A stretch of DNA of 64,000 nt, taken from the sequence record NC_018855.1. One strand, given 5' to 3'. The DNA is from Escherichia phage HX01. Position numbers and translations under genes: made by a program. Numbering within the stretch: position 1 is the first letter of the stretch; every line of letters begins with the position of its first letter. Below are positions 26,685-50,327 of the stretch, piece after piece. The notes under the pieces were generated by a model. That model made no database searches, was not told where the DNA came from, and worked only from the letters and a program-made list of their open reading frames with translations.

Positions 26685-27158
26685 ATGTTATTGACTGGCA
26701 AATTATATAAAGAAGAAAAACAGAAATTTTATAATGCACAAAACGGTAAATGCTTAATTTGCCAACGAGAACTAAATCCTGATGTTCAAGCTAATCACCT
26801 TGACCATGACCATGAATTAAATGGACCAAAAGCAGGAAAGGTGCGTGGATTGCTCTGTAATCTTTGCAATGCTGCGGAAGGTCAAATGAAGCACAAATTT
26901 AATCGTTCTGGCTTAAAGGGACAAGGTGTTGATTATCTTGAATGGTTGGAAAATTTACTTACTTATTTAAAATCCGATTACACCCAAAATAATATTCACC
27001 CTAACTTCGTTGGAGATAAATCAAAGGAATTTTCTCGTTTAGGAAAAGAGGAAATGATGGCTGAGATGCTTCAAAGAGGATTTGAATATAATGAATCTGA
27101 CACTAAAACACAATTAATAGCTTCATTTAAGAAGCAGCTTAGAAAGAGTTTAAAATGA
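26685..27158 (+). CDS. 49: endonuclease VII (Holliday junction resolvase)
   Basis: 157 aa; MLLTGKLYKEEKQKFY..CLICQREL..HLDHDHELNG..LLCNLCNAAEG matches T4 gp49. Confidence 0.95.
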   Translation: MLLTGKLYKEEKQKFYNAQNGKCLICQRELNPDVQANHLDHDHELNGPKAGKVRGLLCNLCNAAEGQMKHKFNRSGLKGQGVDYLEWLENLLTYLKSDYTQNNIHPNFVGDKSKEFSRLGKEEMMAEMLQRGFEYNESDTKTQLIASFKKQLRKSLK

Positions 27159-28972
27159 CAATTGAAAAAGAAATTGAAGGATTGATTCATAAAACTAATA
27201 AAGACCTTTTGAACGAGAATGCTAATAAAGATTCTCGTGTTTTTCCAACTCAACGGGACCTTATGGCTGGTATTGTGTCTAAGCACATTGCCAAAAATAT
27301 GGTCCCGTCTTTTATTATGAAAGCACATGAAAGCGGAATTATCCATTTCCATGATATTGATTATTCCCCTGCTCTTCCATTTACTAATTGCTGTTTAGTA
27401 GATTTAAAAGGAATGCTTGAAAACGGGTTTAAGCTAGGTAATGCTCAAATTGAAACGCCTAAATCGATTGGTGTTGCTACTGCAATTATGGCACAAATTA
27501 CCGCACAGGTTGCTTCACATCAGTACGGCGGAACGACTTTTGCTAATGTAGATAAAGTACTTTCTCCTTATGTTAAACGCACCTATGCAAAACATATTGA
27601 GGATGCAGAAAAATGGCAAATCGCTGATGCGTTGAATTATGCCCAATCTAAAACAGAAAAAGACGTATACGATGCATTTCAAGCTTATGAGTATGAAGTA
27701 AATACTCTTTTTAGCTCAAACGGTCAAACGCCTTTTGTAACAATTACATTTGGTACTGGAACTGACTGGACTGAACGAATTATTCAGAAAGCAATTCTTA
27801 AAAACCGCATTAAAGGCCTTGGTCGTGATGGAATAACTCCTATTTTCCCTAAACTTGTTATGTTCATTGAAGAGGGTGTCAATCTTTATAAAGACGACCC
27901 GAACTATGATATTAAGCAGCTTGCTCTAGAGTGTGCAAGCAAAAGAATGTATCCTGATATTATTTCAGTTAAGAACAATAAAGCTATCACTGGTTCATCT
28001 ATTCCTGTTTCTCCAATGGGTTGTCGTAGTTTCTTGAGTGTATGGAAAGATTCGACTGGAAATGAAATTCTTGATGGACGTAATAATCTTGGTGTTGTAA
28101 CACTGAATCTTCCTCGTATTGCGTTAGATTCTTATATTGGAACACAATTCAATGAACAGAAATTTGTTGAGCTATTTAATGAACGAATGGATCTGTGTTT
28201 TGAAGCCTTGATGTGTAGAATTAGTTCTTTAAAGGGTGTTAAAGCAACTGTTGCTCCTATTCTTTACCAAGAAGGTGCATTCGGGGTTCGTCTTAAACCT
28301 GATGACGATATAATTGAGTTATTTAAAAACGGTAGAAGTTCAGTGTCCCTAGGATACATTGGTATTCACGAATTGAATATTCTTGTCGGACGTGATATTG
28401 GACAGGAAATTTTGACTAAAATGAATGCTCGTCTTAAGCAGTGGACTGAAAGAACCGGTTTTGCTTTTAGCTTGTATTCTACTCCTGCTGAAAACCTGTG
28501 CTATCGCTTCTGTAAACTTGATACAGAAAAATATGGAAGTGTAAAGGATGTTACTGATAAAGGCTGGTACACTAACAGTTTCCATGTTTCAGTAGAAGAA
28601 AATATCACTCCGTTTGAAAAGATTTCTCGCGAAGCCCCATATCATTTCATTGCGACAGGTGGTCACATTTCTTATGTTGAACTTCCTGATATGAAAAATA
28701 ACCTAAAAGGTCTTGAGGCTGTATGGGATTATGCTGCACAGCATTTAGATTATTTTGGTGTTAATATGCCAGTAGATAAATGTTTTACATGTGGAAGTAC
28801 CCATGAAATGACTCCTACTGAAAACGGATTTGTTTGTTCTATTTGTGGAGAAACTGATCCTAAAAAGATGAACACCATAAGAAGAACATGCGGTTATCTT
28901 GGAAATCCGAACGAACGCGGATTTAATCTCGGCAAAAATAAAGAAATCATGCATAGGGTTAAACACCAATGA
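27155..28972 (+). CDS. nrdD: anaerobic ribonucleoside-triphosphate reductase
   Basis: 605 aa, C-terminal Cys cluster and glycyl-radical region; matches T4 NrdD size and position. Confidence 0.93.
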   Translation: MTIEKEIEGLIHKTNKDLLNENANKDSRVFPTQRDLMAGIVSKHIAKNMVPSFIMKAHESGIIHFHDIDYSPALPFTNCCLVDLKGMLENGFKLGNAQIETPKSIGVATAIMAQITAQVASHQYGGTTFANVDKVLSPYVKRTYAKHIEDAEKWQIADALNYAQSKTEKDVYDAFQAYEYEVNTLFSSNGQTPFVTITFGTGTDWTERIIQKAILKNRIKGLGRDGITPIFPKLVMFIEEGVNLYKDDPNYDIKQLALECASKRMYPDIISVKNNKAITGSSIPVSPMGCRSFLSVWKDSTGNEILDGRNNLGVVTLNLPRIALDSYIGTQFNEQKFVELFNERMDLCFEALMCRISSLKGVKATVAPILYQEGAFGVRLKPDDDIIELFKNGRSSVSLGYIGIHELNILVGRDIGQEILTKMNARLKQWTERTGFAFSLYSTPAENLCYRFCKLDTEKYGSVKDVTDKGWYTNSFHVSVEENITPFEKISREAPYHFIATGGHISYVELPDMKNNLKGLEAVWDYAAQHLDYFGVNMPVDKCFTCGSTHEMTPTENGFVCSICGETDPKKMNTIRRTCGYLGNPNERGFNLGKNKEIMHRVKHQ

Positions 28973-29439
28973 ATTATGATAGATTTTATCCTTGCGATTT
29001 TGTGAATGGCCCTGGTTGCAGGGTCGTTCTTTTCGTTACAGGTTGTTTGCATAAATGCGAAGGGTGTTATAATAAATCAACATGGAACGCTAGAAATGGT
29101 ATTCCATTCACGGGTGAAACACTGGAACAATTAATTGAATGTTTGAATAATGATTATATAGAAGGATTAACTATAACTGGAGGAGACCCTCTCTATCCTG
29201 ATAACCGAGATGTTGTTCATTGCATTGTTCAAACAGTAAAAAATCTTTATCAAAATAAAAGCATTTGGTTGTGGACAGGATATAAGTTTGAAGATATTAA
29301 ACAACTAGAAATGCTTAAATATGTTGATGTTATTATTGATGGGAAGTATGAGAAAAATCTTCCGACCAAAAAACTGTGGCGAGGATCAGATAATCAGCGA
29401 CTTTGGTCAAATACCGATGGGGTGTGGAAACATGATTAA
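28969..29439 (+). CDS. nrdG: anaerobic RNR activating enzyme (radical SAM)
   Basis: CDFVNGPGCRVVLFVTGCLHKCEGCYN; ATGA-coupled to nrdD. Confidence 0.92.
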   Translation: MNYDRFYPCDFVNGPGCRVVLFVTGCLHKCEGCYNKSTWNARNGIPFTGETLEQLIECLNNDYIEGLTITGGDPLYPDNRDVVHCIVQTVKNLYQNKSIWLWTGYKFEDIKQLEMLKYVDVIIDGKYEKNLPTKKLWRGSDNQRLWSNTDGVWKHD

Positions 29440-43816: not shown

Positions 43817-44452
43817 ATGAAAACTACTCCTATTACTATCGCTATTGACGCAATCATAAAACAAGCTTCTTCTTTGGTCGCTATGGCCAAAGTAATTAGT
43901 CAAAACCCTGCTCGTTATAATGCTATTCTAGAAACTCTTCGACGCCCAGGACTTAGTAATTATGAAAGCCGAGTAATTATTACAGGTGTTGGTAAGAATG
44001 CTAATATTGCAACTAAAGCTTCTGAGACATTTGCTTCACTCGGTATCCCGAGTATGTACTTGAACACTGGACATTATTCTCACGGTGATGCAGGATTCAT
44101 TGCGCCTAATGATGTGTTGATTCATATTAGTCGTTCTGGTAAAACTGAAGAAATGATAGGCGTGGCTAAGCATCTTAAAATGATTCGTCCGAACGTCAAA
44201 CAGATTCTGTTGCATTGTAACCCGGACATTCCACAAGAATACGAAGCTCTTTTTGATTATACGTTCTGTACAGGCATCGCAGTAGAGGTTGATGAGAATT
44301 CTCTGGCTCCGACCATGTCCACTACATTGTTGTTAGCGCTTATCGATACGTTTGCTATCAACCTTTCGTCTGAACGTGGATTTACCTCTAATGACTTCCT
44401 TAAGTTCCACCCTGGCGGTGCACTAGGTGCCATGTTACGAGGCGAACAATGA
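43817..44452 (+). CDS. SIS-domain sugar-phosphate isomerase (arabinose-5-phosphate isomerase / phosphoheptose isomerase-like)
   Basis: ITGVGKNANIATKASETF and HISRSGKTEE match SIS-domain signatures. Confidence 0.75.
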   Translation: MKTTPITIAIDAIIKQASSLVAMAKVISQNPARYNAILETLRRPGLSNYESRVIITGVGKNANIATKASETFASLGIPSMYLNTGHYSHGDAGFIAPNDVLIHISRSGKTEEMIGVAKHLKMIRPNVKQILLHCNPDIPQEYEALFDYTFCTGIAVEVDENSLAPTMSTTLLLALIDTFAINLSSERGFTSNDFLKFHPGGALGAMLRGEQ

Positions 44453-44592
44453 AAGCAATAACAATAGGACTTTTACTATTGATGCTTGTCATGACTATCT
44501 ACTGGAGCTTAACGACTCCAGTAATGATTCCGACTCTTATAATCGGATGGATTATGATTGGACTACAAGCAAAGTATGAATGCTTTAACTAG
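44449..44592 (+). CDS. 47-aa membrane peptide
   Basis: ATGA-coupled to SIS gene; two hydrophobic stretches; read manually. Confidence 0.4.
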   Translation: MKAITIGLLLLMLVMTIYWSLTTPVMIPTLIIGWIMIGLQAKYECFN

Positions 44593-44633
44593 AATAGTGT
44601 ACAATACTCCTACTTACCAATGAGGACCACAAC

Positions 44634-46319
44634 ATGAAAAAAGCTGTTATTCTTGGTGCTGGACTGGCAACTCGTTTGTATCCAATAACGCATCATATTC
44701 CTAAGGTGCTTGTTAACTATAAACAAGACACTATTCTGAGCAATTTGTATACAATTTATTCTGACCTTGGCGCAGATGAAATTATTGTAGTAGTTCATTC
44801 AAAATTTGCTGAAACTGTTCGAGCTTATTGTGAGCAAGAAGGGTTCAATGTGACTATTCGTACAGTTGATGAAGCGTATGGTTCTGCTTATGCTCTTGCT
44901 AAATTGCACAAAGATTTAGACGGCCATAATGTAATTGTTAACTGGTGTGATATTATTCCTGATTTTGGTTCATGGTCTTGGAATGTTAACGCAATCTATG
45001 TTAAAGGTGACGAATGTCGATATAATTTCGACGGTGAAAATATCACTAACGTAGGTTCAACAGGTGGTAATGTTGTAGGAATTTATCAGTTCAAAGACTG
45101 GGAATTCTATATGGGTTCTACCGATGAGGAAATTCATGAATACTGCAAAGGACGTGATTTCGTAGAATTCCTTTACGGCAGTGCATTCAATAAATCAGAG
45201 CTTATGAATCTAATTGATTTAGGTGATATGCCTAAACTTGAAAAGGCTCATGAAGTTCGTGAACTTAATCGTAGTTTTAATGCCGTTGAAATTGGTGAAG
45301 AAACTGTAACTAAATTCGCATTAACCGAACAAGGCCGAGCTCTTCAGAAAGATGAGATTTCATGGTATCTTAAAGTGAAATCAGATTCAGTTCCTCAGTT
45401 AGTTTCTGTTAATGAAAATAACTTTGAAATGGAACGCATTAAAGGTAAGCCGGCATTTGAATATATTAAATCCAAATCGAGTCTTGCTCGTCCACAAATT
45501 GTTGATGCAATTTTAGATGCACTGAAATTCAGCACAGACACTTATTTTGTAAGTCCTGAAACTGTTCGTCGTGATTTCACTAAAGAATTCTATACTAAAG
45601 TTATTGATCGTTGTGAAAGTATTCAACCATTGATTGATTCATTTGGTAAAATCACACATGTGAACTACACTAAGATTGGGCGTCTGAAGCCAATGTTGAA
45701 ACAAGCTTTAGAACACCTTATTCGTTATCATAACCGTTCTCAGGGACAGTACTCTGTTATTCATGGTGACCCGAACTTCAGTAATACTATGATTACTGAT
45801 AATGGTGAAGTCAAGTTTATCGACCCTCGTGGATATTTTGGTGAAACCAAGATTTATGGACCAAAATTGTACGACGAAGCTAAAGTGCTTTATGCTGTTT
45901 CAGGTTATGATGAATTCAACGCTAATCCGACCTGGGGACAGTTTACTATTGACGAAACAACTTGTAATGTGTCTATTAACATCAATCCATTAGTTTACAA
46001 ATATGGAAAGATGAGTTCGTTTAACGAGTATCATCATTTGGCAGTGGCAATTATCTGGATTGCATTAGGTGGTTATTTCAAGAATAATCCACTTAAAGCG
46101 GTAGCCGCATATTATAAAGGTATGGAACTTCTGACTAAGCAATTACGTAACATGGGCCGTGTACTTCAGGACGGCTCTATTAGTTATGACGTAGCAGAAC
46201 CTGTAACGGCTACTCTGATTACAAAAAATCCTGGTAAATGGGTACTAACTGATAAAGAAACTGGTGTTTCCTATCGTCCAATCGGTGGCGATATCACTCA
46301 TCAATGGGAACGAATCTAA
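44634..46319 (+). CDS. bifunctional sugar-1-phosphate nucleotidyltransferase / sugar kinase
   Basis: N-terminal GAGLATRLYPITHHIPKVL (G-x-G-T-R-x-x-P motif); C-terminal HGDPNFSNTMI and FIDPRGYFG (APH/ChoK-like kinase motifs). Confidence 0.75.
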   Translation: MKKAVILGAGLATRLYPITHHIPKVLVNYKQDTILSNLYTIYSDLGADEIIVVVHSKFAETVRAYCEQEGFNVTIRTVDEAYGSAYALAKLHKDLDGHNVIVNWCDIIPDFGSWSWNVNAIYVKGDECRYNFDGENITNVGSTGGNVVGIYQFKDWEFYMGSTDEEIHEYCKGRDFVEFLYGSAFNKSELMNLIDLGDMPKLEKAHEVRELNRSFNAVEIGEETVTKFALTEQGRALQKDEISWYLKVKSDSVPQLVSVNENNFEMERIKGKPAFEYIKSKSSLARPQIVDAILDALKFSTDTYFVSPETVRRDFTKEFYTKVIDRCESIQPLIDSFGKITHVNYTKIGRLKPMLKQALEHLIRYHNRSQGQYSVIHGDPNFSNTMITDNGEVKFIDPRGYFGETKIYGPKLYDEAKVLYAVSGYDEFNANPTWGQFTIDETTCNVSININPLVYKYGKMSSFNEYHHLAVAIIWIALGGYFKNNPLKAVAAYYKGMELLTKQLRNMGRVLQDGSISYDVAEPVTATLITKNPGKWVLTDKETGVSYRPIGGDITHQWERI

Positions 46320-46705
46320 TGCACCGTGTAGAAAACATGCTTAATCTTTGTTTTGATGTCGATGATTGTATAACAGAGTGGAATAACAACCGTGATTACG
46401 TGAACTTCAAACCAGACGTCGAAATGGTGACTGCCATTAATGCCCTGTACGATGCAGGGCATACCATAACGCTTTACACTGCTCGCGGTATGAAGTCAGT
46501 CGGTCCTGGTCGTATAGCAATTGACATTCTCCCAAGTCTGATTCAGAACTTGGCAAACATTGGATTGAAGTACCATAATTTGCTAACACATAAACCAGTA
46601 TATGATTGGATTATCGACGACAAAGCTATGCGTCCTGACGAATTCAAAGCTCTTATGAATAAAGGCGAATTCGAAACATTTAAATCATATAAACCGAATC
46701 TATAA
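46319..46705 (+). CDS. HAD-superfamily phosphatase
   Basis: Motif I FDVDDCIT; TAATG-coupled start at 46319. Confidence 0.65.
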   Translation: MHRVENMLNLCFDVDDCITEWNNNRDYVNFKPDVEMVTAINALYDAGHTITLYTARGMKSVGPGRIAIDILPSLIQNLANIGLKYHNLLTHKPVYDWIIDDKAMRPDEFKALMNKGEFETFKSYKPNL

Positions 46706-46762
46706 TAATTTAAGTAAGACCTGCAAAAACCATCGCGTCAATTAACGTGAGATGCAAAAAAA

Positions 46763-47923
46763 ATGAATACTTTTAAAATCGGAACGAATTTTGATTTAGC
46801 TCTTCTTGATAAAATCGTAGAGCTCAATAAAACTTATCCTAATAGCTTGATAAACGAAGTATACGGCTCTACAAGAGAAATGGCTTTTGTAGCAGCCAGA
46901 CCTGATTTTAGGCTTCCTGACGTTGACAAAAAGATGTTAGAAGATTATGTTAAACGTTGTAACGAATTAGGTATTTGCTTTAACTATACACTCAACACGA
47001 TAAATCCTGGTTCAAAAAGAGAACTAGTTGAGTGGAAGAAGAAAGCTATTCAGGATTATGTTCAGTATCTTTGGTCAATAGGCGTATGGCGTATTACTAT
47101 CGCTAACCCTGTTGTTATGGAAATTGTTCGTGAAGTCAATAAAGACATTGAGATTGAAGTTTCAACAATTCTACATGTCGATGCTGTAACTCAAATCAAA
47201 TACTTGCATGACCAATATAATATCAAAAAGGTCTGCTGTGGAATTCATAAGAACCGTTCAGTTTCTTTCCTGAAACGTGCAGCAGAGTTTTGTAATAAGA
47301 ACAATATAATATTTGAAGTTCTTGTAAATGAGTTCTGTTCTAATGCTGGTAAAGGGTACACAACACATTGTAGCTATCGTGACTCTTGCTATATTTTCCA
47401 TAGCACCGATGTTACAGTAGATGATGCCAAATCCTTAAATGGATATCCAATGCAACACTGTATTAAAGCTCGTGATACAGATCCATTTAACTGGTTGAGA
47501 ACTCGTTTTGTTCGTCCTCAAGATTTGAAACTTTATAATGATATTGGTATCACTCAATTTAAAGTTTCGGGACGTACAGGTAGCACAGACTACATTTTGA
47601 AAGTTCTTGAAGCTTATGCTTCTGAAAAGTTTGAAGGCAATTTGTTGGAATTGTGGAAGCCTTTAGAGACCATTTTCACTCTTGAAAATGAGACCGAGTT
47701 TTCACATACAGTAAATATTGAAACCTCTTTGTTAGACGGCTTTTTAGAAAAAAGGTGGTTCAAACATCCAGATTTCGATTGTGCTAATGAAATCTGCGGG
47801 ACGACGTGTACATATTGTGAAAGATATTATAAACGTCAGTTATCTAAAAATGGGTTATCAGAAAACTCTATATCTATTATTGATATAACTAACTCTGATG
47901 ACGCTTTGAGGTACCCAGAATGA
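46763..47923 (+). CDS. peptidase-U32-family-like protein with Cys cluster
   Basis: FKVSGRTGS resembles the U32 LKIEGRTKS motif; EFCSNAGKGYTTHCSYRDSC and C-terminal CANEICGTTCTYC. Confidence 0.5.
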   Translation: MNTFKIGTNFDLALLDKIVELNKTYPNSLINEVYGSTREMAFVAARPDFRLPDVDKKMLEDYVKRCNELGICFNYTLNTINPGSKRELVEWKKKAIQDYVQYLWSIGVWRITIANPVVMEIVREVNKDIEIEVSTILHVDAVTQIKYLHDQYNIKKVCCGIHKNRSVSFLKRAAEFCNKNNIIFEVLVNEFCSNAGKGYTTHCSYRDSCYIFHSTDVTVDDAKSLNGYPMQHCIKARDTDPFNWLRTRFVRPQDLKLYNDIGITQFKVSGRTGSTDYILKVLEAYASEKFEGNLLELWKPLETIFTLENETEFSHTVNIETSLLDGFLEKRWFKHPDFDCANEICGTTCTYCERYYKRQLSKNGLSENSISIIDITNSDDALRYPE

Positions 47924-48000
47924 TTTCTAGAAAAACTTTTAACCACCAACTTAACGAAGAGATTTTGACTATTAAAATTAACAGCAACGAACAAATTCTT

Positions 48001-48025
48001 AAAAAGGCCCATAAGGGCCTTTTTG
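48001..48025 (+). terminator. possible terminator
   Basis: AAAAAGGCCC-ATAA-GGGCCTTTTT; lies inside a possible 51-aa ORF. Confidence 0.4.
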
Positions 48026-48161
48026 AAACTAAAGCGGCTAAAGTGATTAAAGAACCTGTTCAACTAGAATACTAAGCCGAAGCTCTACGTTATATCAACA
48101 TCGCTAAGAAATTCAAATAAGCTTTATGAATTGAGTATATAATAACTGTATTGAGGTAAAC

Positions 48162-48878
48162 ATGGGAAAACATAACACAATGAAATATATTAAAGCCGCA
48201 GATTTTCAATCCGCATTTAAAGCTGTCAATCGTGAAATTTTAGAAAATCCACAGTTCATTACTGATTCTCGTATTGGACGTTGTAATGAAATTGGGTCTA
48301 TGACAGTAGTTGTTGATACCCCTTCATCATTCAAAATGACCGACCCACGTATTAATCGCATCTCTTATGAATATGCTGAAGATTTCTGGAAATTTATGAT
48401 TTCTGGTGGTACTGATGCAAAAGAAGCATTTAAGGCATATCCTAACGTCGCTAAATTTATTTCTAAACCTAAATCAGACGCTTTGCCTGCAAACTTCAAC
48501 ACTTTCTATGGTCCACGAATTGCGGCCCAGTTACCAACTCTTCTAAAAGAACTTAAAGAAAAACCTAACTCTCGAAGAGTTGTGTTCCAAATTCTAGAAA
48601 GTTCTGATCAGGCTTTGCTTGATTCAGACGAAACACTTGAATATCCATGTACTGACTCAGTGACTTATTATATTCGTGATGGTAAGCTTTATACCCACTG
48701 TCATATGCGTTCTCAGAACTGTGCTGTTGTTATGCAGTTGGATTTTTATCTCCAAGGAAAATTACTTCATTATATCGCTAACGAATGTGGTGTAGAAGTT
48801 GGTGATTATACTCATACCATGGTAAGTGCCCATGTGTTTGAACGTGATTTTGATTATGTTAAAGGATTCCTTGACTAA
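48162..48878 (+). CDS. 42: thymidylate-synthase-fold pyrimidine hydroxymethylase (gene 42-like, divergent)
   Basis: RRVVFQI, PCTDSVTYYIRDGKLYTHCHMRSQN, QLDF align to TS / dCMP-hydroxymethylase core motifs, with Asp at the cytosine-specificity position. Confidence 0.65.
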   Translation: MGKHNTMKYIKAADFQSAFKAVNREILENPQFITDSRIGRCNEIGSMTVVVDTPSSFKMTDPRINRISYEYAEDFWKFMISGGTDAKEAFKAYPNVAKFISKPKSDALPANFNTFYGPRIAAQLPTLLKELKEKPNSRRVVFQILESSDQALLDSDETLEYPCTDSVTYYIRDGKLYTHCHMRSQNCAVVMQLDFYLQGKLLHYIANECGVEVGDYTHTMVSAHVFERDFDYVKGFLD

Positions 48879-49777
48879 TGGCTATTTTCCGCGTACCTAT
48901 TTTGAGTATGCGGTCTTATGAAACTGGACAGTATGCTATCCTTAAGGATGGCAACTTCCAACTTCATTTGCACCGTGCTAATCCGGGTGATGTGATTACA
49001 TATCCACGTAATGCATCTGATATTAAAGAATGTGAACGTCTTTTCCCAGAATTTAAGTTTGTTCCATTATGGTATAAAGATAACGCATATAACACTCGTA
49101 AATATTTCTGGTCTGAAAATGAATTTGTGGTTGATTCATTAATTGATTATTATGATTGTGATTTTCTAATCACAGATATCACTGGATATGACGGCACTTT
49201 TGACGTAGAATTCAATTTCAATATCACTGCAGACCCTAATAAACCACGTTTTTATATTGACGAATTCTTAAAAACCGACATGTTGTCTGTTAATCGTTCA
49301 CTTCAAACTACTGTGTTGAATGAACGTCAAAAAGAAGTGCTGGTTAACGCAGGTGCAGATGGTAATAAGATTATCGTAACGCAGAAAGTTATACGTCCTT
49401 CCATCATGCAGCGTCTTGTAGGTGATTTGGCCCCTATTCATCTAGATGGTATTTTTCATCCATTTCGAATTAGTGACCCGTGTTATCGTTTTGAACAAGT
49501 GGTTGAATGCGCAATTCAATTAGGTCAACCGCTTTATATAACCGATCCAAATAATAGCTTCGACAGAAATAAGTATCCTGAAGAAGCACTGATTCGAATT
49601 TTTAAACCAACTAAAACTGAGTACTATCAAATTCTTAAAGGAAGACCGAAGATTCAATATTTCGAAAATCCTGAAGAAGTATTCCATCCAGGTCTTGGCG
49701 AGTTCATCTACTTTAACGCTTTAATTTCTTCACCGTATAATATACCTAAATATGAAGATGTCGTAATCGAGGAATAA
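48878..49777 (+). CDS. hypothetical protein; candidate DNA glycosyltransferase by position
   Basis: 299 aa in the slot where T4 has beta-gt; no diagnostic motif recognised. Confidence 0.35.
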   Translation: MAIFRVPILSMRSYETGQYAILKDGNFQLHLHRANPGDVITYPRNASDIKECERLFPEFKFVPLWYKDNAYNTRKYFWSENEFVVDSLIDYYDCDFLITDITGYDGTFDVEFNFNITADPNKPRFYIDEFLKTDMLSVNRSLQTTVLNERQKEVLVNAGADGNKIIVTQKVIRPSIMQRLVGDLAPIHLDGIFHPFRISDPCYRFEQVVECAIQLGQPLYITDPNNSFDRNKYPEEALIRIFKPTKTEYYQILKGRPKIQYFENPEEVFHPGLGEFIYFNALISSPYNIPKYEDVVIEE

Positions 49778-49778
49778 A

Positions 49779-50327
49779 ATGGCTAAAATTATTTTAGTAG
49801 ATGGCCCAGATAATGCTGGTAAAACAACTTTCATTAATGACATAATGGAAATTAGTGAAAGATATGTAAAGATTGATTTCCCTAAACGAACAGTTGATGG
49901 ACGTTTCGATGTTAAGTCTCGAAATGAAGTTGGCTGTTTCGAAACGATGTTGAATTATTTAGACCCTACTAAGATTTATCTGTTAGACCGTGGATATATT
50001 AGTAACTGGGTTTATGGACGTATTCGACAAGATGCGGACTCGGTTCTTGACGTTTATGAACAGGATTATGTTCGTCTTTGCCAAAACCATGATGTGTTCA
50101 CAATTATTTTAACACGTAACGAAATGACTGAAAGTTTTGAAGACGACCTTATTACTTTGTCTTCATTCGGTTTTAATACAGTCATTTCATATTTTGAAGA
50201 GTTTGCAATTCATAACGAAATCCAAACGTATCAATTACTTAATCATGATGGTGCTAACAAAGTTATAGGATTTAATGCAAGCGAACGTAATGGTTTGATT
50301 ACAGAAATTATCAAATGGGCTCGTTAA
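49779..50327 (+). CDS. P-loop kinase (nucleoside/nucleotide or small-molecule kinase-like)
   Basis: Walker A VDGPDNAGKTT, LLDRGY motif. Confidence 0.6.
   Translation: MAKIILVDGPDNAGKTTFINDIMEISERYVKIDFPKRTVDGRFDVKSRNEVGCFETMLNYLDPTKIYLLDRGYISNWVYGRIRQDADSVLDVYEQDYVRLCQNHDVFTIILTRNEMTESFEDDLITLSSFGFNTVISYFEEFAIHNEIQTYQLLNHDGANKVIGFNASERNGLITEIIKWAR

Follow-up and report, generated by a model that had tools for sequence, protein, structure and literature searches.

A gene in the genome of Escherichia phage HX01 (positions 46763..47923, + strand, of the 64,000-nucleotide stretch of NC_018855.1 analyzed here, hereafter the window) encodes a 386-amino acid (aa) U32-family protein, which we propose to be an iron-sulfur (Fe-S), prephenate-dependent, O2-independent hydroxylase of pyrimidine C5. 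The protein is the ortholog of gp50 (RB69p050) from phage RB69, with 383/386 identical residues. We consider it probable that the protein is a prephenate-linked hydroxylase of the U32 type acting on a pyrimidine of some kind. Our main reading is narrower: the protein would provide an O2-independent, prephenate-dependent route to 5-hydroxy-deoxycytidine monophosphate (5-hydroxy-dCMP, or 5hodCMP), parallel to a ThyA-type synthase encoded nearby, and we assign this a probability of roughly one half.

The strongest argument for this chemistry is the linkage of U32 to genes of prephenate synthesis. Prephenate is the product of chorismate mutase (CM), and in most genera related to Mosigvirus, the RB69-like group of T-even phages of E. 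coli from which the window derives, a chorismate mutase gene directly follows U32 with a 4-nucleotide (nt) overlap. Enterobacter phage Entb_45 and Serratia phage LC53 both read U32, chorismate mutase, ThyA homolog, with 4-nt overlaps, and the small proteins pass the Pfam CM_2 model at 41 and 45 bits (gathering threshold, GA, 27). Just 54 of 50,697 phage records have a T-even-type CM, its gene invariably standing between those annotated as "peptidase" and "thymidylate synthase," and all of these records are T-even-like phages of Enterobacterales or Shewanella. The linkage recurs in U32 relatives with 45–58% identity on viral contigs, many of them jumbo-phage sized, where all CM and 3-deoxy-D-arabino-heptulosonate 7-phosphate (DAHP) synthase neighbors were checked against Pfam. 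Fusions of DAHP synthase with CM_2 adjoin U32 upstream (L041, L042, L044, L045) or downstream (L014, L055), stand-alone CM_2 genes overlap the 3′ end of U32 (L047, L049, L057, and relatives), a CM lies two kb from U32 (L120), and a DAHP synthase alone stands beside U32 (L030). There are thus at least four different arrangements of U32 with CM or DAHP synthase in unrelated viral contigs, and such a neighbor is present in 10/33 non-redundant U32 clusters. Among the characterized U32 enzymes, UbiU/V have been shown to draw their oxygen from prephenate (PMC10990095), which is also required for RlhA-dependent 5-hydroxycytidine (ho5C; PMC5727448) and TrhP-dependent 5-hydroxyuridine (ho5U; PMC6599085); the linkage therefore points to the hydroxylation chemistry of the family rather than to a reductase or a protease. 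A preliminary description of this DNA, made from the letters alone, had raised the idea of an Fe-S, O2-independent pyrimidine hydroxylase, and the recurrence of these neighbors strengthens it.

Membership of the protein in the U32 superfamily is supported by both hidden Markov model and fold. The sole domain detected is Pfam PF01136 (42.4 bits, GA 22.4, residues 94–286; 42.2 bits in the RB69 ortholog), and fold comparison predicts a TIM barrel like that of 5d88, the only solved U32 member, with methylenetetrahydrofolate reductase and other oxidoreductases as more distant structural matches. A sequence search of the PDB with the protein found no relatives, 5d88 having been found through fold comparison alone, and a fold search of BFVD returned only the same phage ortholog. 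Profile comparison places the 5-hydroxycytidine synthase RlhA nearest among characterized relatives (hhalign, 204 columns, E 7.5e-6), with weak N-terminal matches to TrhP (131 columns, probability 8%, E 4e-3) and UbiU; profile comparison with UbiV gave no similarity. The protein nevertheless stands outside all four subfamilies. It scores 19.4 bits with the UbiU equivalog model NCBIfam NF047963 (cut-off 440), has neither the RlhA architecture (U32 plus DUF3656 plus a C-terminal Cys region, ∼650 aa) nor an NCBIfam RlhA-type match, and has no full-length similarity to TrhP (453 aa, U32 plus a C-terminal domain). The U32 resemblance and the Cys motif noted in the preliminary description are borne out, and the predicted fold is a TIM barrel of the U32 type.

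The historic name of the family, and database labels such as "peptidase" and "putative protease," could suggest a true collagenase-type protease, and a non-functional relic might also be considered. Both are scarcely credible here. The U32 protein is the most conserved of the island across genera (83–86% aa identity, vs. 78–81% for the synthase), and with dN of ∼0.12 and saturated dS the gene is, on these substitution rates, under strong purifying selection. It is intact at at least 80% coverage in 220/220 phage records and retains ten invariant cysteines; its context is one of nucleotide metabolism with no virion or lysis genes nearby and no sign of a protease role, and the characterized E. 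coli U32 proteins are not proteases (PMC10990095, PMC5727448, PMC6599085). In the record of Escherichia phage OLB35, the gene is split into 269-aa and 108-aa pieces (BFVD A0A3G3MCS7 / A0A3G3MCT7), through a frameshift or a sequencing error.

The canonical Fe-S motif of the family consists of four cysteines ligating a 4Fe-4S cluster (Cx6Cx15Cx3-4C), with a UbiU variant in which the fourth Cys is distal. In the phage protein, four of the invariant cysteines (C192, C203, C209, and C233) fall in the cluster-binding region of the family. In one of two alignments, C203 and C209 occupy the same columns as the second and third cluster cysteines of UbiU, UbiV, RlhA, and TrhP, C192 is one column off the first cluster Cys of the E. 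coli enzymes, and C233 is distal, like UbiU C232. A C-terminal Cx4Cx3Cx2C is also invariant, and RlhA likewise needs its C-terminal cysteines (PMC5727448). This pattern would fit a putative Fe-S site; against it stand the spacing of the cysteines, Cx10Cx5Cx23C, and their different register in the second alignment.

The genes found beside divergent U32 homologs, labeled by similarity to genes of the window, bear on the substrate. A core module comprises the hydroxylase, GT1 (a homolog of DNA arabinosyltransferase-1), and NK (a thymidylate-kinase-like nucleotide kinase). Type A loci read GT1, isomerase, AfhE, (DAHP synthase-CM), and then U32, while type B loci carry a thymidylate-kinase-like gene matching Pfam Thymidylate_kin, overlapping GT1 and U32, and DNA polymerase, with no arabinose genes; GT1 homologs adjoin U32 in both types (blastp). 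In type C loci, which occur in Phocaeicola, Tannerella, BRC1, and Bacillota genomes, a guanylate-kinase/SAM-methyltransferase fusion lies beside U32, and by analogy with the conversion of ho5U to mo5U, this module may serve to make an O-methylated hydroxypyrimidine nucleotide. Elsewhere, U32 is found beside dCMP deaminase, NT5C, dNK, or a YfbR-like nucleotidase. U32 travels with a nucleotide kinase and an enzyme transferring a group onto a hydroxyl, not with arabinose synthesis, and because of this association the hydroxylation of a pyrimidine mononucleotide fits.

The same chemistry could instead be directed at a polymer, either cytosine already in DNA, where it would convert unmodified C left after replication, or RNA of the host or the phage (tRNA U34, or rRNA sites like C2501). 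The pyrimidine-hydroxylating U32 enzymes characterized so far all act on RNA polymers, RlhA among them is the best profile match, and the prephenate/CM linkage would fit a polymer substrate equally well. We consider this unlikely, given that the 386-aa protein, with PF01136 only and no NCBIfam match to RlhA or TrhP, is without the extra domains of these enzymes, that its neighbors are consistently nucleotide kinases, dCMP deaminase, NT5C, and dNK rather than RNA-related genes, and that RB69 replaces cytosine completely through a mononucleotide pathway (PMC13326640).

Several further features of these loci were observed. The type C order is GP88, the guanylate-kinase/SAM-methyltransferase fusion, an ∼267-aa unknown protein, and U32 (L126 2996–7089; L125 3872–7080; L124 3810–7086; L121/L003), and Phocaeicola faecalis is among the type C genomes. 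On huge-phage-like contigs of up to 466 kb, dCMP deaminase is directly upstream of U32 (L002 9447–10004; L005 8279–8704), and these two contigs also carry a DNA polymerase III alpha fused to uracil-DNA glycosylase and a MazG/dUTPase-like gene; on contigs of this kind the U32 substrate could be dUMP and not dCMP. A radical SAM/SPASM protein of ∼340 aa recurs within 1–5 kb of U32 in several lineages (L003 14160–16360 = L121 10151–12360; L002 1314–2249; L012 7972–9000), and the gene after it in L003/L121 encodes another U32 paralog, a divergent one of 377 aa, which recalls the UbiU/UbiV pair. The gene after U32 in L038 (9086–9979) has a sub-threshold match to the TET-associated DNA glycosyltransferase (TAGT, 22.6 bits, GA 27.5). 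The position of the thymidylate-kinase-like gene varies: in Klebsiella- and Proteus-type phages (L074, L075, L087, L089, L112) it separates AfhF from U32, and in Mosigvirus it follows GT1 (49779–50327).

The preliminary description placed the gene in a phage cytosine-modification island, and that location is supported. In RB69 and Acinetobacter phage DLP3, cytosine is replaced by mono- and poly-arabinosylated 5-hydroxycytosine (Lee et al., NAR 2026, PMC13326640). In the same work, gp50 appears only in Table 1, where fold matches to 5d88 underlie the label "sugar or heterocycle reductase," with no text and no experiment, and the Discussion mentions pyrimidine hydroxylation pathways of the RlhA and TrhP type without connecting gp50 to them (PMC13326640). 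The U32 match of the phage gene has been in the literature since 2006 (PMC1524935), so that its presence here, which the preliminary description called unexpected, is so only in part: the family match and the gene itself had been recorded. The searchable literature, with He et al. (2026) and Mahler et al. (2025) outside the search, held no link of U32, chorismate mutase, or prephenate to phage 5-hydroxycytosine, and the U32 gene is not a topic of the Thanatos and Durham papers.

We know of no U32 member that is a reductase. The published label would nonetheless accord with the TIM barrel, with its distant likeness to methylenetetrahydrofolate reductase and other oxidoreductases, and with the position of the gene between the sugar-activation genes and the synthase; the protein might then be the reductase for a sugar intermediate in arabinose synthesis, or supply reduced flavin to the ThyA-type synthase. 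This possibility is quite unlikely. The route proposed to uridine diphosphate (UDP)-arabinose from ribulose-5-phosphate requires no redox step (PMC13326640), the pathway operates or is encoded in DLP3 and Acinetobacter phage Lazarus although both lack U32, and type B loci have U32 with GT1 and NK, with no arabinose genes and, within ±8 kb, no ThyA-type synthase. A reductase would also leave the linkage to CM and DAHP synthase unexplained.

An additional oxidation of the modified base or sugar, giving a further-decorated nucleoside, was the function suggested in the preliminary description, and it draws on the hydroxylation chemistry of the family and on the position of the gene inside a modification island. 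The published nucleosides make it very improbable. Nuclear magnetic resonance and mass spectrometry of RB69 nucleosides found only arabinosylated 5-hydroxy-dC, and the nucleosides of RB69 (with U32) and DLP3 (without U32) coincide in mass (m/z 376, 508) and in retention time (PMC13326640). The Lazarus island, too, is without U32. An additional product formed under anoxia alone would still be compatible with the RB69 and DLP3 data.

The distribution of the known and the putative route to 5-hydroxy-dCMP follows the oxygen physiology of the hosts. In the window, the ThyA homolog (48162..48878, + strand; Pfam Thymidylat_synt 57 bits; 233/238 residues identical to RB69 gp48) lies 240 nt downstream of U32, and this homolog is the flavin- and O2-dependent 5-hydroxy-dCMP synthase. 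For this enzyme, He et al. (2026) have reportedly confirmed O2 as the oxygen source in vitro. The ThyA homolog hydroxylates dCMP, binds flavin, and takes its oxygen from 18O2, and RB69 gp48 has been found experimentally to make 5hodCMP (PMC13326640). Modules with the ThyA-type enzyme only (5hoCsyn > GT1 > NK) are present in Lazarus, Rhizobium phage RL38J1, and ∼25 divergent viral loci. Lazarus has the synteny of the window with the U32 slot cleanly missing, so that AfhF abuts the synthase. In the U32-only modules (types A to C), no ThyA-type homolog was found within ±8 kb, and a motif-seeded scan for the synthase found none on ∼35 divergent U32 contigs; the ThyA of L032 is a canonical thymidylate synthase (244 bits). 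Both hydroxylases occur together in the enterobacterial Straboviridae, or T-even-like phages.

Acinetobacter and Rhizobium phages are phages of obligate aerobes. The synthase is present in 57 Acinetobacter and 20 Rhizobium records, none of which is in the U32 list, and the 220 phage records with U32 are all from Enterobacterales or Shewanella, the rest of the phage collection having no match of less than 80% identity. Among 100,044 species genomes there were only 8 U32 matches, all in anaerobe lineages. The hosts of U32 are facultative and obligate anaerobes only, and the islands of Acinetobacter and Rhizobium phages are without it. This pattern of U32 only, ThyA-type only, or both mirrors those of TrhP/TrhO and UbiUV/UbiIHF. 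Because the gene is dispensable for the chemistry in aerated culture and yet strongly conserved in nature, an alternative route specific to certain conditions is suggested.

Several points weigh against a prephenate-dependent dCMP hydroxylase. The function of the U32 protein is read from context: the analysis establishes its fold, family, conserved cysteines, gene neighborhoods, and host distribution, and Fe-S binding, the use of prephenate, the substrate, and independence of oxygen are inferred. The characterized enzymes that hydroxylate pyrimidines act on RNA polymers, not mononucleotides (PMC5727448, PMC6599085), and no U32 protein with direct hydroxylase activity has been reconstituted so far (PMC10990095). 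The Cys spacing is Cx10Cx5Cx23C vs. the canonical Cx6Cx15Cx3C, and two alignments, one of them by hhalign, differ in register, i.e., in which cysteines correspond. The window has no chorismate mutase of its own, the 51-aa open reading frame (ORF) in the corresponding slot having no CM_2 signal. The absence of the ThyA-type enzyme from U32-only contigs was judged from ±8 kb flanks and from a motif-seeded scan of limited sensitivity. Lastly, some enterobacterial T-even-like phages have the O2-dependent synthase without U32, which is thus not universally needed there: six enterobacterial T-even-like contigs of ∼170 kb (L078, L080–L083, L092) read AfhF > NK > 5hoC synthase, with neither U32 nor CM. 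Their synthase is ∼80% identical, they are probably Dhakavirus-like, and they depart from the host-physiology pattern.

In the mechanism we propose, a phage-specific U32 subfamily would hydroxylate C5 of a pyrimidine deoxynucleotide, here converting dCMP to 5-hydroxy-dCMP, with the hydroxyl oxygen coming from prephenate instead of O2, as proposed for UbiU/V, RlhA, and TrhP. The enzyme would work in parallel to the adjacent flavin- and O2-requiring synthase, and its product would join the shared downstream steps of nucleotide kinases, DNA polymerase, and arabinosyltransferases, so that, even during anaerobic growth of its enteric host, the phage could keep swapping cytosine for 5-hydroxycytosine open to glycosylation. 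Since the chorismate mutase slot holds an unrelated ORF, Mosigvirus must rely on host prephenate, which would come from PheA/TyrA; most sister genera bring their own chorismate mutase. In uncultured phages of obligate anaerobes, U32 may lay the basis for hydroxypyrimidine DNA that is glycosylated (types A and B) or perhaps O-methylated (type C), and DAHP synthase and chorismate mutase, carried there as auxiliary genes, would supply the ∼10^7 prephenate molecules needed per burst (our own estimate, from ∼62,000 C per genome and a burst of 100–200). More tentatively, and at somewhat less than even odds, the phage U32 subfamily as a whole may be a prephenate-dependent C5 hydroxylase of pyrimidine deoxynucleotides, the sole hydroxylase in phages of obligate anaerobes and the anaerobic half of a dual pathway in enteric T-even-like phages.

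Phages with 5-hydroxycytosine break down dCTP and cannot do without the modified base, yet the one synthase known requires O2 and their hosts are mostly found in the anoxic gut; a route independent of oxygen would remove this paradox. If correct, the proposal would bring both a U32 enzyme and an organic oxygen donor into DNA biosynthesis for the first time, would extend prephenate-dependent hydroxylation to DNA precursors beyond RNA and quinones, and would give a reason for the presence of shikimate-pathway genes in phages. It would also offer a small, soluble, single-substrate U32 enzyme for in vitro study of a chemistry still unreconstituted. RB69-like phages are therapy candidates, and the protection of their DNA in the gut may depend on the U32 gene and on the aromatic metabolism of the host. 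The proposal would further direct attention to hypermodified DNA, so far unexplored, in the phages that infect Bacteroidales and Clostridia.

Positions 44000–49000 of the window are matched by 149 phage records at 95–99% identity. The island genes from DNA polymerase to UvsX are all co-directional and closely packed, in the order DNA polymerase, arabinose-5-phosphate isomerase (SIS domain; RB69 gp55; 43817..44452, + strand), AfhE-like bifunctional sugar kinase/nucleotidyltransferase (RB69 gp52:53; 44634..46319, +), AfhF-like HAD phosphatase of the UDP-arabinose pathway (RB69 gp51; 46304..46705, +), U32, the small ORF, the ThyA homolog, GT1 (RB69 gp46:47, assigned by position and RB69 correspondence; 48878..49777, +), NK (RB69 gp45, assigned by RB69 correspondence, with homologs near U32 matching Pfam Thymidylate_kin; 49779..50327, +), and UvsX. 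The 51-aa ORF (47920..48075, +) overlaps the U32 stop codon by 4 nt and is not a chorismate mutase. As candidates for an intact or decayed one, both it and RB69 ORF049c were rejected: Pfam gave nothing at a threshold as loose as E 10, and a profile of the CMs from T-even-type phages scored ∼0 bits in every frame. Its region (47920–48161) is indel-polymorphic among phages of >97% identity, with a 39-nt deletion relative to RB69 ORF049c (79 aa) and a 1-nt insertion in 308Ecol101PP. A 47-aa ORF (44449–44592) overlaps the end of the isomerase gene; its position is kept in RB69 (ORF054c), 308Ecol101PP, and LC53, where it is annotated with a transmembrane segment. Promoter and terminator scans gave nothing above background, and the U32 protein matched no family of the PADLOC anti-phage defense models at E <= 0.01. 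Elsewhere in the window, the genes for Endonuclease VII (26685–27158), the anaerobic ribonucleotide reductase NrdD (27155–28972; Pfam NRDD 571 bits), and its radical-SAM activase NrdG (28969–29439) follow one another; judged by its gene content, the phage is equipped through NrdD/NrdG for dNTP synthesis without oxygen.

Among known systems, RlhA (YdcP), the synthase of 5-hydroxycytidine-2501 in 23S rRNA, shares the U32 TIM-barrel core and is the best match among the E. coli U32 enzymes. It makes 5-hydroxy-cytosine, needs prephenate and Fe-S biogenesis, and has essential cysteines in the U32 motif and in a C-terminal group (PMC5727448). However, RlhA is a 653-aa protein with DUF3656 that modifies one rRNA position, whereas the phage protein has 386 aa, no DUF3656, other Cys spacing, and a context of deoxynucleotide and DNA modification. 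Mk0906 of Methanopyrus kandleri (PDB 5d88) is a U32 protein of 247 aa with 14% identity, without the C-terminal Cys-rich extension of the phage protein. The synthases of RB69 (gp48), DLP3 (gp80), and HY126 have the same proposed product, a gene 240 nt downstream, and shared GT1 and NK partners, but differ from the U32 protein in their unrelated fold and cofactor, in being experimentally verified, and in their dependence on oxygen. The UbiU/UbiV pair, compared with UbiI/H/F, is a case in which U32 Fe-S proteins replace flavin/O2 hydroxylases under anoxia, with prephenate as the proven oxygen donor (PMC10990095), and the distal fourth Cys of UbiU (C232) is resembled by C233 of the phage protein; unlike it, UbiU and UbiV act on a quinone as a heterodimer working with UbiT, and the phage protein reaches 19 vs. 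440 bits with the NCBIfam UbiU model and has no similarity to UbiV. TrhP and TrhO offer a parallel in pyrimidine chemistry, being two unrelated enzymes for tRNA ho5U34, one a prephenate-dependent, O2-independent U32 protein (TrhP) and the other O2-dependent (TrhO) (PMC6599085). There, the substrate is a tRNA uridine, the aerobic partner is a rhodanese protein rather than a ThyA homolog, and the profile match of TrhP to the phage protein has an E value of 4e-3; organisms have one or both of these enzymes according to lifestyle (PMC6599085), which matches the pattern of U32 only, ThyA-type only, or both in phages.

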